Sequence record: OL631481.1 | Source of the DNA: Escherichia phage ECML-183-2 | Length of the DNA: 64,000 nt | Direction: 5' to 3' (one strand) | Shown here: piece after piece, positions 45,591 through 59,024 of the stretch | Layout of the letters: each line of letters begins with the position of its first letter | Position numbering within the stretch: position 1 is the first letter of the stretch | Translations under genes and position numbers: made by a program | Notes under the pieces: generated by a model | The model's input: the letters and a program-made list of their open reading frames with translations, nothing else | Told to the model about the DNA's origin: nothing | Databases searched by the model: none

Positions 45591-45914
45591 ATGAGATTTA
45601 CAAGACAAGAGGTGGTTGTGCTGGACGAAGCAATGACAATGATCGTCTTTTACTACGAGGATATCTTCTGTGCAGCATATCATTTAAATGACATTCAGAT
45701 TGAATGGCAGCAGATAGCATTCTTGTTGGACAAGAGTAATCATTTAGATGGCTTTGAGTATTTGGAATGGGATGGTGCAAAGGAAGTTAAAATTGTAGGG
45801 TTAAATCACGATCAGATTGTTGACATGCAATGTAAGTTGTGTCATTATCAGTTCTCAAACAAAGTCAAACTCGAAAGGCAATTGGAGGTGGTTAAAGATG
45901 ATAGCACTAATTAG
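45591..45914 (+). CDS. hypothetical early protein
   Basis: 107 aa; AGGAGG RBS. Confidence 0.55.
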   Translation: MRFTRQEVVVLDEAMTMIVFYYEDIFCAAYHLNDIQIEWQQIAFLLDKSNHLDGFEYLEWDGAKEVKIVGLNHDQIVDMQCKLCHYQFSNKVKLERQLEVVKDDSTN

Positions 45915-47885: not shown

Positions 47886-48230
47886 ATGAAAGTTTGGATA
47901 GATGATATGCGGAACCCAGCCGACTATGGACAGGAAGATGCAATTTGGTTTAAAACGTCACAAGAAGCTATGGCTTTTCTCAATGATCCTGCTAAACTGT
48001 ATCGAAGAGTAACCGAGTGGTCTTTTGACAATGATTTAGGTATGGAGTCAGACCAAGATGGGTATGATGTTTTCCTGTACCTGGAAGAACTTCTGGCGTT
48101 TGGTAAACCTTGCTTTGGTTCACCCACCATTTTCGTGCATACTTCTAATCCCGCCGCTGGGGATAAATTCATGCTTGCAAAAGAATCCATGCTGCGTTAT
48201 GGTATTAAAATGATTCGTGTGCACTATTAA
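47886..48230 (+). CDS. hypothetical early protein
   Basis: 114 aa; GAGGAGG RBS. Confidence 0.5.
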   Translation: MKVWIDDMRNPADYGQEDAIWFKTSQEAMAFLNDPAKLYRRVTEWSFDNDLGMESDQDGYDVFLYLEELLAFGKPCFGSPTIFVHTSNPAAGDKFMLAKESMLRYGIKMIRVHY

Positions 48231-48239
48231 GGAGAGAAC

Positions 48240-48383
48240 ATGCATCATTCGGTTTGGTCGGAACAAGAAGAGGACGAAGGTTACTTTATCTACCGAGAAG
48301 AAGAGGATTGGCCCGACACAAGTAATGATCTTTTACTTCCAGATACTAGTTTTATCGAGGATAACTTAAGAGAGGAGGATTAG
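48240..48383 (+). CDS. small acidic hypothetical protein (47 aa)
   Basis: ATG after AAGGAGAG; below ORF-track cutoff. Confidence 0.3.
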   Translation: MHHSVWSEQEEDEGYFIYREEEDWPDTSNDLLLPDTSFIEDNLREED

Positions 48384-48389
48384 GAAACA

Positions 48390-48746
48390 ATGAGTGGTAT
48401 TGAAAACAATATTTGTTACCAACCTCTTACCTGGATTGGTGAGGGTCATTATGCGCAACGTGTTATCGTCTGTGCTGCGAATAAGTATATTTTGAATAAT
48501 GGTGAAGAGTTAATTATTCCTTGTGTTCGACATGCAAATCCTGTACTATATGCACAGTTAAGCGTGTTGAAAGAAGCAGGTGTAATCAACAAAACTTTGT
48601 GCACACCAGATAATCAAGGCTTTATCGATCAGTATTACAATTGGTGGAGTCGTGCGGATGCTTACGTCATCGCGGAAAATGCTGACCAGATCGACCATGA
48701 GCGTAATGGTCACGACCATGAATTATTTAGCGAGGGATTATACTAA
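48390..48746 (+). CDS. hypothetical early protein
   Basis: 118 aa; GAGGAGGA RBS. Confidence 0.5.
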   Translation: MSGIENNICYQPLTWIGEGHYAQRVIVCAANKYILNNGEELIIPCVRHANPVLYAQLSVLKEAGVINKTLCTPDNQGFIDQYYNWWSRADAYVIAENADQIDHERNGHDHELFSEGLY

Positions 48747-49297
48747 TGTTTATTACAAGCGATTTGCATTTTATGCATAAACGTATTCGAGAGTTTGCTC
48801 CTGAATATCGTCCGTGGGAAGATATGGACCACATGACAGAAGCCTTGATCGAAGCATGGAACAAATGTGCTACTACTCCTGGTGTTAAGATGTGGCATTT
48901 GGGCGACTTCTGTTTCGGAACTGAAGAAGATACCCGTAAAATTGCTTCCCGTCTCCAAGGAGATATCACCTACTGTGTTGGGAACCATGACTACAGCAAA
49001 CACCGAGAAGTGCTTGCAGAGTATGGAGAAGTGGTGTATTATGACGAAGTGAAATATCAGAAGCTGTTCTTCGTCTTAAGCCATTACCCTATGGCCTCCT
49101 GGAATAAACAAGGTCGTGGATCAATCATGCTACACGGGCATTCCCACGGATCTTTCCCTGATGAAGCTTATGGTAAAATGTTAGATGTGGGTTGGGATGC
49201 ACACGGAAAAATCTTGCATTTTGATGAGATAATTTCTATGATGAGTAAACGAGATATCGTGACTGTAGACCATCACAAAATAATCAAAGGAGAGTAA
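48746..49297 (+). CDS. calcineurin-like metallophosphoesterase
   Basis: Motifs D-x-H (SDLHF), GD (HLGDF), GNHD (VGNHDY), GHSHG in canonical order. Confidence 0.6.
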   Translation: MFITSDLHFMHKRIREFAPEYRPWEDMDHMTEALIEAWNKCATTPGVKMWHLGDFCFGTEEDTRKIASRLQGDITYCVGNHDYSKHREVLAEYGEVVYYDEVKYQKLFFVLSHYPMASWNKQGRGSIMLHGHSHGSFPDEAYGKMLDVGWDAHGKILHFDEIISMMSKRDIVTVDHHKIIKGE

Positions 49298-49298
49298 T

Positions 49299-50231
49299 GT
49301 GACTAAATTTAATTGCGACGATTTGGTTGAAAAAGGTTTAGTTCATAAGAAAACATATAAAGAAGGAGAGTATTCTGGTCTATCTGTTCTTAAGTATAAG
49401 AACAAAGTTTTCTGGGATAACTTATGGAGCATTGATTCTCGTCTTCTAGAATGTCGCGGAATCGTTGTTGATGCTGATGACAATGTTGTTATTTGGCCTT
49501 TCACTAAGATTTTTAATCGTTTTGAGAATGGCACAGATCTACCAGCGGATGAACTTGTAGATGTGGTTCGTAAAGTAAATGGTTTTATGGCCTCTGTAGG
49601 TGTATATAAAGGTCAACTTATTGTATCGACAACAGGAAGCCTTGAATCAGATTTTGCAAGTATTGCAAAGAATCATATTGTTTCAGAGTGTGATGACATA
49701 GAACATTTCATCAAATGGACAGAGAGTGCAAAAGCAACTTTCCTTTTTGAAATCTGCGATCCTTCTGATCCGCATATTGTCGAAGAAGAACCAGGTGCAT
49801 ACTTAATTGGTGCCAGAATTCAAAATCCTGATGGGACAAGTTTTATGTTACCTGAAGGTGCTCTTGATGGAATTGCTTCTGTCACCAAATTTAAGCGTCC
49901 TGAAGTTCATTCGATGGTTAAGTTTTCAGATGTTGTTGAAATGTCTAAACATTGTAAACACGAAGGGTTTGTAGTTCGTGAAACAAACTATCCGTTCAAC
50001 TTGCTTTTAAAAATTAAATCACCACACTATCTTACTAAGAAGTTTCTTATGCGTGGTGGAGATAAAAAGTGGGATCTGATTTGGGATAATCCAAAAAATG
50101 CCAAACAAATTGTTGACGAAGAATATTACGCTTTGTTAGAATGGATTCGAAATAATTTTACGAAGACTCAATGGGCTGCTTTAAATCAGCAAGAGCGACG
50201 TGAAAAAATCGAAAACTTCTTTGGGGGATAA
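49299..50231 (+). CDS. rnlA: RNA ligase 1-like (T4 RnlA-like) covalent nucleotidyltransferase
   Basis: Motif I KVNG, motif IV EGFVVRE, motif V LLLKIK; N-terminal LLECRGIVVD resembles T4 Rnl1 ALECRGIMFE from memory. Confidence 0.6.
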   Translation: MTKFNCDDLVEKGLVHKKTYKEGEYSGLSVLKYKNKVFWDNLWSIDSRLLECRGIVVDADDNVVIWPFTKIFNRFENGTDLPADELVDVVRKVNGFMASVGVYKGQLIVSTTGSLESDFASIAKNHIVSECDDIEHFIKWTESAKATFLFEICDPSDPHIVEEEPGAYLIGARIQNPDGTSFMLPEGALDGIASVTKFKRPEVHSMVKFSDVVEMSKHCKHEGFVVRETNYPFNLLLKIKSPHYLTKKFLMRGGDKKWDLIWDNPKNAKQIVDEEYYALLEWIRNNFTKTQWAALNQQERREKIENFFGG

Positions 50232-50636
50232 ATGAAACAACTTATCATTTTACGTGGCGTTTCAGGTGCTGGTAAATCTACGGTAGCAGAAATTATTTCT
50301 GAAGGTTATTGGCCTATCTGTGAGGCAGATCAATATCATTACACAGAAAGTGGTGTTTACGATTGGAAGCCAGAAAATGTAGGTAAAGCACACGCATGGT
50401 GTCAGAGTATTGTTCGTGATGCTATGAAATCTGATCTTAAAAAGATTATTGTTTCTAACACTTCAACCACAGAGAAAGAACTTAAACCTTATTTAACTCT
50501 TGCTGAAGAGTTTGGTTATCAAGTTATCTCTTTAGTTGTTGAAAATAGACACGGTAACGATTCAATTCACGAGGTTCCACAACATATTCGTGATCAACAA
50601 GAGAAACGTCTTCGTGGTTCACTTAAACTTCAATAA
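50232..50636 (+). CDS. pnk: polynucleotide 5'-kinase (T4 Pnk kinase-domain-like, no phosphatase domain)
   Basis: MKQLIILRGVSGAGKSTVA closely parallels T4 Pnk MKKIILTIGCPGSGKSTWA from memory; only 134 aa. Confidence 0.65.
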   Translation: MKQLIILRGVSGAGKSTVAEIISEGYWPICEADQYHYTESGVYDWKPENVGKAHAWCQSIVRDAMKSDLKKIIVSNTSTTEKELKPYLTLAEEFGYQVISLVVENRHGNDSIHEVPQHIRDQQEKRLRGSLKLQ

Positions 50637-50645
50637 GGAGAGATA

Positions 50646-50972
50646 ATGCAAATTTATACAGATGATCGTAAATATGAGACAATTTTAGACGAAGATACTG
50701 GACGAATTACCGTTCTCCGTCACGGTGAAGAGTGGCGTGATGAAACTGGGGATAACTATATCTTATCTCTGATTCATCTTATTGAACAAATGCGTGATGA
50801 TTACGCTGAACTGCATTATGAAAATGAGGCGAATAAAGTAAAATTTGAAAATGAATTAGAAGAGAAAGAATCAGAAATGGTATATCTAAAAGAAGAGATC
50901 TCCCGTTTGGAGGAAGAGATTGATGCTCTTCAGGAAGAGATTTACGAACTCAACAACGAACTGAACTCTTAA
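50646..50972 (+). CDS. coiled-coil hypothetical protein
   Basis: 108 aa; Glu/Leu-rich heptad segment. Confidence 0.5.
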   Translation: MQIYTDDRKYETILDEDTGRITVLRHGEEWRDETGDNYILSLIHLIEQMRDDYAELHYENEANKVKFENELEEKESEMVYLKEEISRLEEEIDALQEEIYELNNELNS

Positions 50973-50981
50973 GGAGAGATT

Positions 50982-51173
50982 ATGAAAAAAGATATCGTTG
51001 TTGTTGGTTGGCTGACTTGCCCTTGTGGTAGTAATGACATAACTGTAAACACAGAGGGTGATAAAAATTATTTATTCTACGGTGATAAAATCACTTGCAA
51101 TACCTGCGGACGTGTTGGTATTATAGAAACCGATGATTGCTGCGTTTTTGAATCTTGGGATGAAGATGAATGA
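50982..51173 (+). CDS. zinc-ribbon-like hypothetical protein
   Basis: 63 aa; CPCG...CNTCG Cys pairs. Confidence 0.45.
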   Translation: MKKDIVVVGWLTCPCGSNDITVNTEGDKNYLFYGDKITCNTCGRVGIIETDDCCVFESWDEDE

Positions 51174-51391
51174 GTACTGCATTTTATGTTCGTAGCGGGG
51201 ACGAGGATTTTCTAGCTACTTTTGATGACGGTGATCTTGAAGATATGTATGAAGATATGCTTGACTATGCCAAAGGGCAAGGTTTCACAAGCATTGATTA
51301 TATGTTGGCAACATCTACAACGTTACTCGACGCAGATTTGGATGAAGTGTGTAACAGATTGAAAATTTCAGTTTTTAAATGGGAGGACTAA
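51170..51391 (+). CDS. acidic hypothetical protein
   Basis: 73 aa; ATGA overlap. Confidence 0.45.
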   Translation: MSTAFYVRSGDEDFLATFDDGDLEDMYEDMLDYAKGQGFTSIDYMLATSTTLLDADLDEVCNRLKISVFKWED

Positions 51392-52506
51392 TGCAACAAA
51401 CAAATCAAACGCTGTATGGTAAAGATTCAAAAGGAAAACTTAAACAGTGGACAGTGTATACAGATGGTGCAGTTGTTACTGTAGCTCATGGAAGGGTAGG
51501 TGGAAAAATCACAGAAAAATCTTATACAGCAGAAGCAAAAAACATTGGTCGTTCCAATGAAACAACACCGGAAGAACAAGCTGAACTTGAAGCTTTTGCC
51601 AAATGGACAAAACAGTTAAAGAATGGCTATTATAAAACAAAAGAAGAAGCTGAAAACCATGTTCCTTCCACACCAATGAAATGCCAGGATTATAAAGATT
51701 ATCCTGAAAAGGTTGTGTTCCCTGGTTATGCACAATACAAACTGAACGGGTTACGTTCTATGATTAACATGAAAGGGGAGTGTTTATCAAAAGCTGGGGA
51801 AGTGTATAACCTACCACCTCATTGGAAAGGTATTCCAAACTTTATTAGTGAAGTTGTTGGTCATCCTCTTGATGGTGAAGTGTTTGCTGGGTTAGGTGTC
51901 CTTAGTCTGCAACAAATTAACAGTGCTTGGAAGAAGCATAATGCAAATACACCTTTGCTGAATTATTACGTATACGATATTCCAGTTCCAGGCCTACCGT
52001 TTGAAAAACGTGTTGATGCTCTTGCTGCTCTTAAGGCAGTAGTTGAAGATTATGGTCTTGACGAGCTTATTTGTGTAGTTCATACAGAGTATATTGAAAA
52101 CCAAGAACAGTTTGATGCTTTCTATGAAAAAGCTTTACTTGAGAAAGCTGAAGGTGTAGTATATCGTAATGCTCACGGAGTTTACGAATTTGATAAACGT
52201 TCTTATGACGTTATTAAACGTAAGCCTCGCCACACCCTTGAAGTTAAAGTAACACATTCAAAAAGTGATAAAAATGGCGATGGAGTGTTGACAGGTGAGA
52301 TGGAAAATGGTAAAGTAGTCGAATTCTTAATGCGTAAAGATGCTCATGAGACTATCAATTATCGTAAAGCAGAGAATGCTTCTACCTTGATTAATCAGTT
52401 CGTTGAAATAGAGTATGAAGAATTTTCAGATGAAGGTATTCCAACAAAACCTGTTGGTGTTCGTATTCGAGAAATGATCCCAGGCACTTGGGAACCAGCA
52501 GAATAA
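51391..52506 (+). CDS. ATP-dependent ligase-family nucleotidyltransferase (probable DNA ligase)
   Basis: Motif I KLNGLR, motif IV EGVVYRN, motif V DVIKRK; ATG at 51391 overlaps upstream TAA (TAATG). Confidence 0.5.
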   Translation: MQQTNQTLYGKDSKGKLKQWTVYTDGAVVTVAHGRVGGKITEKSYTAEAKNIGRSNETTPEEQAELEAFAKWTKQLKNGYYKTKEEAENHVPSTPMKCQDYKDYPEKVVFPGYAQYKLNGLRSMINMKGECLSKAGEVYNLPPHWKGIPNFISEVVGHPLDGEVFAGLGVLSLQQINSAWKKHNANTPLLNYYVYDIPVPGLPFEKRVDALAALKAVVEDYGLDELICVVHTEYIENQEQFDAFYEKALLEKAEGVVYRNAHGVYEFDKRSYDVIKRKPRHTLEVKVTHSKSDKNGDGVLTGEMENGKVVEFLMRKDAHETINYRKAENASTLINQFVEIEYEEFSDEGIPTKPVGVRIREMIPGTWEPAE

Positions 52507-52898: not shown

Positions 52899-53624
52899 AT
52901 GATCGAGAATTTTTTTAAAGATATTAAATTCGATACTGAATTTTTCAAAAATGCAGCAAAGCACGTGATTGATTGGAATGCCAAAGCACGAGGTGGTGAA
53001 CAACCGGAATTCACTCAAGAGCTATTTATGTCCCAAATCGGGTTCGTTCGTGAAGAGCTTAAAGAGTATGAAACAGCCGCGAAAGTAAACGATCATGTAG
53101 AACTCTTGGATGCAGCAGCGGATATTTTTGTAGTATCCAGTTATCTGACCTACATGTTCTTTGGTGAAGAACATACGATGAATTTCTTGGACTATGCTGT
53201 AGGCGATGTTTTTACTCCAACTGTGTATACTGATTTTGATGCTTTGGAACAAACATTTACAGAGCCAGTTCAAATGGCACTAATGGCTGCTGGTATTATG
53301 CGTATGTCTCGTGACACTCTAATCCGTTCAAAATATCCAGAAAAGAAAGTTATTAAAGAGGTATTGAAAAGTAATGATTCCAAGTATCCAACTAAACAAC
53401 AGTTGCTGAAAACTTGGAAAACTTCGGATATCGATTCAGCCATTGCACAAGAATGCGCTGCAATTGAAGAACGAAATGCCAATCGTCCAGAAGGGGCATA
53501 CACTGGTGTTCATGCTGTTTATAATGAAAAACAGAAAGTGTATGTGTTCTTTGATGATAAAGGTAAGATCATGAAACCATCGACCTTTGTCAAACCTAAT
53601 ATTGCAGGTATTATTAATAAGTAA
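52899..53624 (+). CDS. MazG-like nucleotide pyrophosphohydrolase domain protein
   Basis: REELKEYETAAKVNDHVELLDAAADIFV resembles the all-alpha NTP-PPase EExxE...D signature. Confidence 0.45.
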   Translation: MIENFFKDIKFDTEFFKNAAKHVIDWNAKARGGEQPEFTQELFMSQIGFVREELKEYETAAKVNDHVELLDAAADIFVVSSYLTYMFFGEEHTMNFLDYAVGDVFTPTVYTDFDALEQTFTEPVQMALMAAGIMRMSRDTLIRSKYPEKKVIKEVLKSNDSKYPTKQQLLKTWKTSDIDSAIAQECAAIEERNANRPEGAYTGVHAVYNEKQKVYVFFDDKGKIMKPSTFVKPNIAGIINK

Positions 53625-54592: not shown

Positions 54593-54621
54593 GCCTACCT
54601 ACTTAATGAGGTAGGCTTTTT
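54593..54621 (+). terminator. terminator-like hairpin abutting the promoter -10
   Basis: GCCTACC-loop-GGTAGGC followed by T5; predicted start site falls inside the hairpin. Confidence 0.4.
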
Positions 54622-57803: not shown

Positions 57804-58379
57804 TTGGCAGGTGAACCAAAAATAATGTGGGGTGAAGGAACACCCTGGAAAACACAAGCGGAATTTTATACTTATCTTAGGGGATGTTTTAGAAAAGCAT
57901 GGATGAGACACCCTAATAAAATTAAGGTTATCAATGCAAGGCGTTTTAAAGTTGATCGCGTAGATAAAGACGGCAATGTAATGCTAGATAAGAAAACTGG
58001 AAAACCAAAACAAGTTTGGAATTGTGAGTGCGAAATATGTGGACATAGAGGAGGAATGAAAGACTTCCAAGTGGATCATATTCACGCAGCAAAACAACTT
58101 CAATGTTTTGATGATATTCCTCTTTTTGTTTTCCGTTTGATCTATGTGAAAGAAGAAGATTTGCGAATGGTTTGTAAATTGTGCAACTCTATTCTTGCTT
58201 ATGCAGACAAGCAAGGCATATCTTTTGAAGAAGCAAAAGCTGAAAAAGAAGCGATAGCTTTGTGTAGAGCTAAGAAAGATAAAGCATGGCTGAAGAAGCG
58301 TAAAATAGAACCTGAAAGCACAGTAGCAAAACGCCGTAAACAAATAGTCAAAATCCTATTGCAGGAAATTGAAAGTTAG
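57804..58379 (+). CDS. HNH endonuclease (free-standing homing-endonuclease-like)
   Basis: CECEICGH...QVDHIHAAK...CKLCNS His-Me finger pattern; start codon (TTG 57804 or ATG 57825) uncertain. Confidence 0.55.
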   Translation: MAGEPKIMWGEGTPWKTQAEFYTYLRGCFRKAWMRHPNKIKVINARRFKVDRVDKDGNVMLDKKTGKPKQVWNCECEICGHRGGMKDFQVDHIHAAKQLQCFDDIPLFVFRLIYVKEEDLRMVCKLCNSILAYADKQGISFEEAKAEKEAIALCRAKKDKAWLKKRKIEPESTVAKRRKQIVKILLQEIES

Positions 58380-58415: not shown

Positions 58416-59024
58416 ATGCAGATAGTATGTGATTGGGATTTAGTTGTGGCTCCGTTAGATGTTGCTTGGTTAGAATGGTTGAATAAGATTAGTGGCCTTG
58501 GTGTTAAAATCGACACATTCACAAAAAATGCAGATTATGATCTTACCAACTATTTTCCTGGTTTCAGGGAAGAGTTCAACATAGATCCTTACGGATTTCT
58601 GGATAATCCTCATCTCTACGATACTATGGGTTTTGTTCCAGGTATGCCAGATTTCTTAAAGTATGTTTCAAGGAAAGGTAGCAATCTTTTGATCGCGAGT
58701 GTGACAAAAGGTGGTCACTTAAGTTCTAAACATAAACATGTTTTAAGAACATTAGATACGATTGATTTTAGCAAAGGGTCTGGTAACGGCTTTTTTGCTA
58801 CGAAAGAAAAATACTTATTACCTTGTGATATAGCAATAGATGACAGGGCTGATAACCTATTATATTTTCCAGATGAAGTAGTTAAAATATATTTTAATAC
58901 ACCTTATAAAGATAACCATCTAGAAGAACTAAAGAAAAAACCAAATGTTGTGATCACAGGTTTAGAAGATCAGTGGCTAACATGTTTGGATGTTTTTAAC
59001 ACTTTGAACAATTTTAAAAACTAA
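58416..59024 (+). CDS. HAD-superfamily phosphatase (5'-nucleotidase-like or Pnk-phosphatase-like)
   Basis: N-terminal DxD (VCDWDL) and C-terminal AIDDR motif. Confidence 0.4.
   Translation: MQIVCDWDLVVAPLDVAWLEWLNKISGLGVKIDTFTKNADYDLTNYFPGFREEFNIDPYGFLDNPHLYDTMGFVPGMPDFLKYVSRKGSNLLIASVTKGGHLSSKHKHVLRTLDTIDFSKGSGNGFFATKEKYLLPCDIAIDDRADNLLYFPDEVVKIYFNTPYKDNHLEELKKKPNVVITGLEDQWLTCLDVFNTLNNFKN

Follow-up and report, generated by a model that had tools for sequence, protein, structure and literature searches.

Three adjacent genes of Escherichia phage ECML-183-2 (sequence record OL631481.1), analysed here within a window of 64,000 nucleotides that comprises the whole stretch of DNA under study, encode a metallophosphoesterase (MPE), an RNA ligase of the Rnl1 family and a small P-loop kinase resembling polynucleotide kinases. 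These genes probably represent a phage RNA end-healing and sealing module, i.e. a non-orthologous, multi-protein counterpart of the T4 enzymes Pnkp and Rnl1, a reading to which we assign a probability of roughly 0.7. A set paralleling T4 Pnkp and Rnl1 had been proposed in a preliminary description made from the DNA letters alone, and after testing it is still the best-supported explanation. The reading is built on direct observations, namely the family membership of the three proteins, the intact catalytic residues of the ligase, of the kinase (P-loop and Asp33) and of the MPE metal site, the conserved linkage of the genes in other phages and the covalent fusions of the kinase with other domains.

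According to the proposed mechanism, a host ribonuclease that works without metal, for instance an anticodon nuclease or an effector of the HEPN type, would cut tRNA or another RNA and leave a 2',3'-cyclic phosphate and a 5'-OH. The cyclic phosphate would be opened by a cREC domain protein, which is encoded upstream of the three genes, and/or by the binuclear MPE, and the MPE would then remove the phosphate to yield a 3'-OH. The Pnk-like kinase of 134 amino acids would phosphorylate the 5'-OH, and the Rnl1-family ligase would adenylylate itself on Lys92, transfer the AMP to the 5'-phosphate and seal the break. What we infer are the substrates, the way in which cREC protein and MPE share the work, and a counter-defence purpose; that the module serves to counter RNA-cleaving host systems seems to us somewhat more likely than not.

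Results

The three genes

The source genome belongs to the genus Phapecoctavirus, i.e. to the phAPEC8-like E. coli myoviruses of the Stephanstirmvirinae. Bases 48300-51000 of the window share 98-98.7% identity with dozens of genomes in the databases; over the cassette region more than 50 Phapecoctavirus genomes reach 98%, and in 112 phage records at least 80% of bases 48300-51000 is covered. The retention of the region in relatives and the existence of hundreds to thousands of protein homologues indicate that the three genes are real and not chance open reading frames (ORFs). All three lie on the + strand exactly at the positions given in the preliminary description (Table 1), and its assignment of an MPE, an Rnl1-like ligase and a Pnk-like kinase proved right by Pfam, PHROG and profile matches. 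The record of phage Schickermooser names the same genes 'putative phosphoesterase or phosphohydrolase', 'putative RNA ligase' and 'putative polynucleotide kinase'.

The junctions between the genes are as tight as had been claimed. The ATG of the MPE gene shares one nucleotide with the TAA of the upstream gene (TAATG) and has a GAGGGA 8 nucleotides upstream, the GTG of the ligase gene follows the MPE TAA after a gap of one nucleotide and is preceded by AAGGAGAG, and the ATG of the kinase gene directly abuts the ligase TAA and is preceded by GGGGGA. A purine-rich, Shine-Dalgarno-like run is thus found before each of the three starts.

The RNA ligase

The second protein matches the Pfam family RNA_lig_T4_1 (PF09511) at 1.1e-15 (58.6 bits, cut-off 28.3) and phrog_562 at 1.4e-70. 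A single-sequence search of the PDB gave no match and a profile was needed; built from 30 homologues, it matched T4 Rnl1 (2c5u at 7.7e-11, with 9do4 likewise at about 8e-11) over residues 48-238. Ten residues of T4 Rnl1 known to be essential all have conserved equivalents in the ligase; nine of these are invariant among the 30 homologues, and the tenth, F72, is retained in at least 90% of them. Upstream of motif I the T4 residues R54, K75 and F77 (in the segments LECRG and PMEKFFN) correspond to R53, K70 and F72, and in the nucleotidyltransferase motifs K99, G102, E159, E227, G228, K240 and K242 correspond to K92, G95, E151, E222, G223, K238 and K240. Motifs I (K92-x-x-G95), III (E151), IV (E222-G223) and V (K238-x-K240) are therefore all present, and they are invariant in the homologues.

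Overall, the protein is about 19% identical to T4 Rnl1. Its AlphaFold (AF2) model has a predicted local distance difference test score (pLDDT) of 91.3, and in Foldseek the ligase domain of fungal Trl1 and T4 Rnl1 were the best matches (3.5e-13 to 1e-11), followed with progressively worse values by archaeal Rnl3 (about 1e-10), T4 Rnl2 (about 1e-7), Naegleria Rnl5 and DNA ligases (1e-5 or weaker). Against the NCBIfam equivalog model for T4 RnlA (TIGR02308) it reaches 25.2 bits, the cut-off being 242. Judged by its sequence, the protein is a member of the Rnl1 family that belongs to a distinct subfamily and is not an ortholog-level T4 RnlA. The C-terminus of the model consists of six helices (residues 242-307, about 65 amino acids), whereas the tRNA-specificity domain of T4 (about residues 255-374) comprises about 120 amino acids. 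That the protein of 310 amino acids is an RNA ligase can be regarded as very probable, and in phage Paula the gene is labelled 'RNA ligase / RNA repair'. The preliminary description had considered that it might turn out to be a DNA ligase; at the level of sequence and fold this identity was rejected, on account of the motifs, the model and the presence of a separate DNA ligase gene further downstream.

It is very unlikely that the ligase serves morphogenesis, as does T4 gp63 in tail-fibre attachment, or the maturation of phage tRNAs, instead of counter-defence. PHROG and GenBank do carry the label 'RNA ligase and tail fiber protein attachment catalyst', but this label is inherited from T4 gp63, and the ligase falls far below the equivalog cut-off given above. 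A role in tRNA maturation would fit the position of the cassette a few kilobases (kb) from a tRNA cluster, here as well as in rV5-like phages, and the fact that some of the cluster tRNAs are unusual; however, ARAGORN at default settings reported no introns in the tRNA genes of the window. Moreover, the ligase gene belongs to a block of early genes for nucleotide metabolism, the structural genes lying elsewhere on the other strand, and the conserved partners of the ligase are predicted end-healing enzymes.

The kinase

The kinase matches AAA_33 (2e-9), phrog_2071 ('ATPase', 1.4e-57) and phrog_505 ('polynucleotide kinase', 6e-9), and phrog_8238, which is labelled 'RNA ligase', matches it at its N terminus. 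A single-sequence search of the PDB returned P-loop matches only. The best PDB matches of a profile of 29 homologues were the Pnkp1 kinase of Capnocytophaga (4xrp, 2.2e-7), T4 Pnk (8.8e-5) and the Pnk of Clostridium thermocellum (CthPnk, 4.2e-4), all of them polynucleotide kinases of RNA repair. The preliminary description had likened the protein to the kinase domain of T4 Pnk without the HAD phosphatase, and the comparison was borne out: hhalign aligned it with the T4 kinase domain over 130 columns (97.5% probability, E 7.4e-12), and the protein ends at residue 134 without a C-terminal HAD/DxDxT phosphatase domain, the next ORF encoding an unrelated coiled-coil protein. The P-loop GxxGxGK(S/T) is present as G9-V-S-G-A-G-K15-S16-T, with G12, G14 and K15 invariant. 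D33 is invariant as well and was aligned with the general-base Asp of T4 (D35) and C. thermocellum (D38) by both HMMER and hhalign.

The kinase family is large, with 569 representatives (50% identity clusters) at E<=1e-30, most of which are stand-alone proteins of 130-150 amino acids. Among the best 150 of these representatives, the kinase was found fused behind an Rnl1-type ligase (P0467, P0388), in front of an Rnl1-type ligase (P0424; the same order occurs in the ORF L082:574-1872), behind an HD phosphohydrolase (P0402, P0439, P0475) and joined to a CNPase-type 2',3'-cyclic phosphodiesterase (P0447). No fusion of MPE and kinase was seen in this set, all long members being ligase, HD or CNPase fusions. 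The fusions tie the kinase family to RNA ligation and RNA 3'-end phosphoesterases, as would be predicted for a polynucleotide 5'-kinase acting in RNA repair. We consider with good confidence that the protein is a 5'-OH polynucleotide kinase.

The metallophosphoesterase

The MPE matches Pfam Metallophos above the cut-off (3.1e-5) and phrog_547, 'phosphoesterase', at 6.5e-56. The binuclear metal motifs (DxH, GD, GNH, H, GH, GHxH) are invariant in 31 homologues and comprise D6, H8, G53, D54, G79, N80, H81, H113, G131, H132 and H134. The AF2 model reaches a pLDDT of 95.6, and its top Foldseek match is 1xm7, the Aquifex protein AQ_1665, followed by MJ0936, Mre11, LpxH and a nuclease MPE of P. putida. 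The fold alone does not tell what the enzyme hydrolyses, and the basis for its role is the gene context. In this regard, distant relatives of the MPE are encoded near RNA-repair genes in Listeria phage P100 (RNA ligase, RtcB), in a Bacillus phage (PNK, nucleotidyltransferase) and in a Stenotrophomonas phage (PseT, tRNA genes). On balance we lean slightly towards the view that the MPE heals the RNA 3' end by removing a 2',3'-cyclic or a 2'/3' phosphate.

Conservation of the gene neighbourhood

A related neighbourhood has been described by Iyer, Burroughs, Anantharaman and Aravind in 2022, who defined a 'type 2' arrangement with Escherichia phage V5 and Proteus phage Mydo as prototypes, and predicted that it functions in RNA repair by the clean-up and ligation of RNA termini carrying 2',3'-cyclic phosphates (PMC9503650). 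When the three proteins of the present cassette were searched by tblastn against 50,697 phage records, matches were obtained in 624 (kinase), 725 (ligase) and 1409 (MPE) records. In groups carrying all three genes the counts were almost equal, amounting for kinase, ligase and MPE to 197, 198 and 210 in Escherichia phages, 173, 177 and 181 in Pseudomonas phages, 36, 36 and 39 in Klebsiella phages and 24, 24 and 26 in Acinetobacter phages. The order of the genes varies. Aeromonas phage 2L372X has MPE, ligase and kinase as overlapping ORFs, and in a Pakpunavirus the MPE is followed by three genes and then by ligase and kinase. In an rV5-like phage kinase and MPE lie on one strand and ligase, cREC, sirtuin and MazG are divergently placed on the other, and in Mydo the order is MPE, two genes, ligase, an ORF of 114 amino acids at the cREC position, kinase, one small gene and Sir2.

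The linkage was quantified in 80 kinase-anchored IMG/VR loci extending up to 6 kb to each side, in which six-frame ORFs were searched with profiles. An MPE gene was present in 55 of the 80 loci, in all cases on the same strand as the kinase and in 15 at a distance of at most 100 bp, which makes it by far the commonest neighbour (the next family occurs in 15 loci). An Rnl1-like ligase was found in 30 loci and an RNA ligase of the PF09414 family in 20, one or the other being present in 47, and cREC was found in 16. By a rough estimate for random placement, a gene in a genome of 100-150 kb would fall into such a locus about 10% of the time. When the kinases were clustered at 70% identity, 28 of 46 clusters had an MPE neighbour, in at least nine different gene orders. 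The IMG/VR loci are not phylogenetically independent; therefore, the linkage of MPE and kinase is an indication and not a test. The AQ_1665-type MPE is the principal conserved partner of the kinase and not an occasional one.

The same loci bear on the alternative that kinase and MPE clean 5'-OH/3'-phosphate nicks or breaks in DNA for the nearby DNA ligase, with the Rnl1-like enzyme being incidental, as modelled on eukaryotic PNKP or on the bacterial ligase-associated MPE/PdeM systems. A DNA ligase gene begins 740 bp downstream of the kinase and also follows it in Aeromonas phage 2L372X, in Mydo and in the loci L009-L012, and the remaining genes of the surrounding block serve DNA and nucleotide metabolism. 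DNA is a substrate of T4 Pnkp besides RNA, and the fold neighbours of the MPE include Mre11 and the P. putida nuclease. However, only 12 of the 80 kinase loci contain a DNA ligase, compared with 55 for the MPE and 47 for an RNA ligase, and cREC and PF09414 RNA ligases recur as neighbours. Among the kinase fusions of the set examined, the partners include Rnl1-type ligases and a 2',3'-cyclic phosphodiesterase but never a DNA ligase. Hence, a pathway dedicated to DNA ends appears quite unlikely.

Two further features recur around the module. tRNA genes in its loose vicinity are also found in rV5-like and Stenotrophomonas phages. Furthermore, ribose-phosphate-pyrophosphokinase-like and NAMPT/NAPRT-like genes recur beside the kinase or the MPE in a Pakpunavirus, a Bacillus phage, Mydo and the IMG/VR loci, where Nudix, PRPP-synthetase-like and NAMPT-like genes each occur in 12-14 of the 80. 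The pair of PRPP-synthetase-like and NAMPT genes resembles the NAD+ reconstitution genes of phages, and its recurrence suggests a shared anti-defence island.

Arguments against an RNA repair function

Several observations weigh against the interpretation as an RNA end-healing and sealing module. Regarding the kinase, the position of T4 Pnk R38, an essential residue that contacts the acceptor, is occupied by His36 and varies between His, Phe and a gap among the homologues. In the lid, R106 is the only invariant Arg and is aligned with T4 R122; the position matching T4 R126 is not Arg, invariant H107 and H113 are found nearby, and the alignment of this loop contains a gap of seven residues. The variable His36 and the single invariant lid Arg therefore define a distinct kinase-only subfamily and not a truncated T4 Pnkp. 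Regarding the MPE, the only close solved relative found by its profile, AQ_1665 (1xm7, 6.6e-22), is a structural-genomics protein without an assigned function. Lambda phosphatase appears at rank 31 of the Foldseek list (E 0.011) and the Pnkp phosphatase is not among the top 50, and there is a weak match (E 0.0034) to the DNA-damage, ligase-associated endonuclease PdeM, which also counts in favour of the processing of DNA ends. A membership of the MPE in the Pnkp/lambda-phosphatase type was ruled out by the profile, which found AQ_1665 only, and by the Foldseek ranking; the phosphatase 'of the type seen in bacterial Pnkp' of the preliminary description is thus true at the superfamily level only, the actual family being AQ_1665/COG4186.

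The genomic context also holds points of this kind. The MPE family is wider than the kinase family (about 1409 versus 624 phage records), 21 of the 80 kinase loci contain neither an MPE nor an RNA ligase within 6 kb, and in three of six contexts of distant MPE relatives (Staphylococcus, Enterococcus and Streptomyces phages) no annotated RNA-repair gene is nearby. The tight packing is not particular to the cassette and is found equally throughout the + strand block of about 45.8-54.6 kb; since the whole block is packed alike from a promoter-like site to a hairpin, the three genes form no separate operon. In addition, the kinase is given no more specific name than 'a nucleotide kinase' by Iyer et al. 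(PMC9503650), and we found no biochemical or genetic test of the MPE, ligase or kinase subfamilies in the literature. Finally, at least two retrons that cleave tRNA still act against related phage groups: Eco2, a nickase of the tRNA acceptor stem, against Stephanstirmvirinae and Vequintavirinae, and Kva2, a HEPN system, against Vequintavirinae. Any protection by the module would therefore not be general but specific to particular lesions.

Some of these points could also be explained if the genes were merely co-located in an anti-defence or nucleotide-metabolism island without a common pathway. Only the ligase would then act on RNA, the MPE would degrade signalling nucleotides or NAD/ADP-ribose derivatives, and the kinase would phosphorylate small molecules, namely nucleotides or nucleosides. 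The absent equivalent of T4 Arg38, the width of the MPE family and the PRPP-synthetase-like and NAMPT pairs, Nudix, macro, sirtuin and MazG genes found as neighbours elsewhere are compatible with this explanation, as are the wording of Iyer et al. for the kinase and their suggestion that phosphoesterases may process ADPr>P (PMC9503650). However, polynucleotide kinases can be aligned with the entire kinase, whereas nucleoside kinases share only the P-loop; the kinase is covalently fused to RNA ligases in both orders, and its adjacency to the MPE, as overlapping or abutting ORFs, persists through many rearrangements. Hence, a mere co-location is unlikely, and the genes are better understood as an RNA end-healing and sealing module.

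Neighbouring genes and genome setting

The features of the region are compiled in Table 1. Most of the + strand block around the cassette is devoted to DNA and nucleotide metabolism. The sigma-70-like site at its head should be read with care because the promoter scan of the window was uninformative (38 sites versus 32.3 expected from shuffles). In the record of phage Schickermooser a terminator is annotated at the place matching the hairpin at the end of the block.

Table 1. Features of the cassette and its surroundings in the 64,000-nucleotide window
Feature	Position	Strand	Remarks
tRNA gene cluster	42146-44132	-	10 ARAGORN calls and one weaker Rfam match at 43351-43435
Best sigma-70-like site at the head of the + strand block	45820-45848	+	TTGACA-17-CATTAT with TG; consensus match only
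cREC domain protein	47886-48230	+	114 amino acids; predicted opener of 2',3'-cyclic phosphate; PF20274 match
Protein of phrog_839, T4 arn.3-related	48390-48746	+	118 amino acids; stop overlaps MPE start; module membership doubtful
Metallophosphoesterase (MPE), AQ_1665/COG4186 family	48746-49297	+	183 amino acids, ATG start; proposed 3'-end healing enzyme
Rnl1-family ATP-dependent RNA ligase	49299-50231	+	310 amino acids, GTG start; adenylyltransferase domain and short C-terminal helical domain
Kinase-only Pnk-like P-loop kinase	50232-50636	+	134 amino acids, ATG start; proposed 5'-OH polynucleotide kinase
ATP-dependent DNA ligase	51379-52506	+	Outside the RNA module; Pfam DNA_ligase_A_M 4.3e-9, phrog_114 2.2e-74
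MazG-type nucleoside triphosphate pyrophosphohydrolase	52899-53624	+	Pfam PRA-PH 2.7e-6, phrog_671 7.5e-29
Terminator-like hairpin, probable block end	54593-54616	+	8-bp GC-rich stem followed by a T run

The preliminary description saw a cassette of only three ORFs and thereby missed the cREC and MazG genes, which belong to the same conserved neighbourhood. The cREC protein matches Pfam PF20274 (cREC_REC) at 3.9e-17 (63 bits, cut-off 27) and is 58% identical to the cREC adjoining the ligase in an rV5-like phage; in Klebsiella and Salmonella phage relatives the gene is located between ligase and kinase, where Mydo has its ORF of 114 amino acids. The family is uncharacterised, and its discoverers predicted an opening of cyclic phosphates in RNA repair (PMC9503650). 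In the phages ESCO5 and SophiaRose the cREC gene (L092:187-531 and L004:3112-3462) is labelled 'putative RNA ligase and tail attachment protein', which looks like a mislabel carried over from the adjoining ligase. MazG is likewise listed in the published RNA-repair neighbourhood (PMC9503650), and the gene found here is homologous to the one beside the sirtuin in an rV5-like phage and is also present in Mydo and in L009-L012. Two genes of SophiaRose are annotated as 'Sir2-like'; one of them, SOPHIAROSE_87 (L004:1615-2328), is a homologue of the MazG gene of the window (30% identity, E 4e-10), and a sirtuin-like N-terminal motif (GAGLSAESGIPTFR) is found only in the other, SOPHIAROSE_86.

The protein of 118 amino acids encoded directly upstream of the MPE matches phrog_839 (2.4e-46) and had no Pfam, NCBIfam or PDB match. 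Homologues of it are present in 1526 phage records, T-even phages among them, under labels such as 'anti-restriction nuclease', 'arn.3' and 'putative tRNA processing enzyme', and none was found beside the kinase in the 80 IMG/VR loci. With this distribution, its arn.3-like family and the missing domain matches, it is not supported as a core component of the module. The HAD phosphatase at 58416-59024, to which the preliminary description had pointed in the context of RNA repair, does exist as a HAD protein. It is an NT5C-type 5'-nucleotidase that adjoins ThyX and ribonucleotide reductase, and was for these reasons assigned to nucleotide metabolism and ruled out as a spare RNA 3'-phosphatase.

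Two small genes of the region may be mentioned in addition. Between kinase and DNA ligase, where Mydo carries the sirtuin, an ORF of 63 amino acids (50982-51173, + strand) has two CxC/CxxC pairs (CPCG...CNTCG) and probably encodes a zinc ribbon, for which no family match was found. An HNH endonuclease (57804-58379, + strand; phrog_1985, 7.3e-66), possibly a homing endonuclease, is located inside the nucleotide-metabolism block.

The tRNA cluster is situated beside the cassette, as had been noted, only in a loose sense, since it is 4.6 kb away from the MPE start and on the opposite strand. Within it, tRNA-Asn(GUU) (43256-43341, - strand, 86 nucleotides) is drawn by ARAGORN with a long, type II-like variable arm, which is unusual for an Asn tRNA. 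The eleventh tRNA-like gene (43351-43435, - strand) reaches 39 bits with the Rfam tRNA model and was missed by ARAGORN run with its defaults; once the threshold was relaxed, it was called as tRNA-Tyr(GUA) of 84 nucleotides with three mismatches in the acceptor stem, and it may be degenerate. Colicin E5-type nucleases target the Asn and Tyr tRNAs with GUN anticodons, and a link between these two tRNA genes and the repair module would be speculative. Among the related records, several near-identical ones carry the label 'Campylobacter phage' (such as B15, D1 and C11) or 'Acinetobacter phage' but share 98% identity with Phapecoctavirus or Vequintavirus genomes of E. coli, and these host labels look doubtful.

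Discussion

Relation to known RNA repair systems

The classical reference for the module is the pair of T4 Pnkp (PseT) and Rnl1 (gp63), which counters the anticodon nuclease PrrC. The likeness comprises the ligase family and its essential residues, the alignment of the kinase over 130 columns and the logic of healing the 3' end, phosphorylating the 5' end and sealing. However, T4 Pnkp contains a HAD (DxDxT) phosphatase, in place of which a separate binuclear MPE and a cREC protein are found here, and the ligase belongs to another subfamily with low identity and a shorter C-terminal domain, while the kinase has His in place of Arg38.

A closer relationship exists to the 'type 2' neighbourhood of rV5 and Mydo. 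Ligase, cREC, kinase, MazG and MPE are all present between positions 47886 and 53624 as homologous or syntenic genes, and in the case of Mydo the synteny extends to the downstream DNA ligase. Some differences are nevertheless obvious. The cREC gene is located between ligase and kinase in the published arrangement but upstream of the MPE here, and the phosphoesterase, which is optional in that description, was the commonest partner in the kinase-anchored loci (55 of 80). The published neighbourhood is centred on a distinct sirtuin, and none was found here: tblastn with the rV5-like sirtuin detected none in the 64-kb window (best E 1.1), nor did Pfam scans of the ORFs between kinase and MazG. 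Consequently, the NAD-dependent removal of a 2'-phosphate that was proposed for rV5 and Mydo has no candidate enzyme in the window. This suggests that the MPE, perhaps after opening of the cyclic phosphate by cREC, yields a plain 3'-OH. Such a product would fit an Rnl1-type ligase because T4 Rnl1 requires no 2'-phosphate.

The bacterial Pnkp/Hen1 and Pnkp1-Rnl-Hen1 systems of C. thermocellum and Capnocytophaga are similar in that they combine a P-loop 5' kinase, a binuclear MPE and an ATP-dependent RNA ligase, and the bacterial Pnkp1 (4xrp) is the best solved match of the kinase. They differ by being fused, whereas the activities are distributed here over separate proteins with an MPE of the AQ_1665/COG4186 family, an Rnl1-type ligase and no Hen1 methyltransferase. 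Fungal and plant Trl1, which unites ligase, kinase and cyclic phosphodiesterase domains, provides the top structural match of the ligase, and its domain set is recreated in other phages, where the kinase is joined to a ligase or a 2H/CNPase domain. After sealing by Trl1 the junction retains a 2'-phosphate that Tpt1 has to take off, whereas the MPE is expected to leave a plain 3'-OH here; no 2H domain is present in the 64-kb window.

Recently, tRNA repair has also been proposed for the homologous kinase and the ligases of the Pseudomonas phage Adele, a Pakpunavirus, with the remark that a 3'-phosphatase domain is missing from the kinase (2025; PMC12846349). Adele shares with the phage studied here the kinase-only protein and an Rnl1-like ligase, but the paper does not name the phosphoesterase as the missing partner (PMC12846349), and at other places of their genomes Pakpunaviruses also possess a second RNA ligase and a Pnkp-like gene of full length. 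In a survey of jumbo phages, the group of Iyer et al. noted that calcineurin-like domains sometimes supply the phosphatase step (PMC7824862). The same RNA-repair function has thus been predicted independently in three publications (PMC9503650, PMC7824862, PMC12846349), and a literature search combining 'Phapecoctavirus' and 'RNA ligase' returned no paper. The novelty implied in the preliminary description does not hold, since GenBank records already annotate the genes and the neighbourhood has been published (PMC9503650, PMC12846349). The cassette is a sirtuin-less member of an already published class of predicted phage RNA-repair neighbourhoods and is not new in kind. What is added here is modest, namely the MPE as principal partner of the kinase, the record of kinase proteins fused to ligase, HD and CNPase domains and the identification of the cREC gene in this phage.

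As a tentative extension, which we consider possible but hold at somewhat less than even odds, the kinase-only Pnk and the AQ_1665/COG4186 MPE might form an obligate RNA end-healing pair, i.e. a 'split Pnkp' that arose independently of the T4 (HAD) and the bacterial (lambda-phosphatase-like) Pnkp and acts across hundreds of phage lineages with whichever RNA ligase is available. In the sirtuin-less version of phAPEC8, the MPE, acting on a cyclic phosphate opened by cREC, would then replace the NAD-dependent removal of the 2'-phosphate that was proposed for rV5 and Mydo.

Significance for phage biology

Defence systems that cleave tRNA are numerous and include PrrC, RloC, PARIS, retrons, Cas13, OLD, HEPN effectors and others. 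To our knowledge, phage counter-measures beyond T4 Pnkp and Rnl1 have not been studied biochemically. The module is carried by large and therapeutically used groups of phages, such as Phapecoctavirus, Vequintavirinae, Pakpunavirus and the myoviruses of Klebsiella, Acinetobacter, Aeromonas and Vibrio. The idea of RNA repair by these genes is already present in the literature, and the value of the case is that of a well-documented and directly testable example, not that of a discovery. If the module indeed repairs tRNA, it would help to explain the host range of the carrier phages, would provide cREC and a so far uncharacterised family of phosphoesterases with a function, and would represent a compact RNA repair kit of three or four enzymes. 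Should the kinase and the MPE moreover prove to act as a split Pnkp, this would be the first function for the AQ_1665 family.

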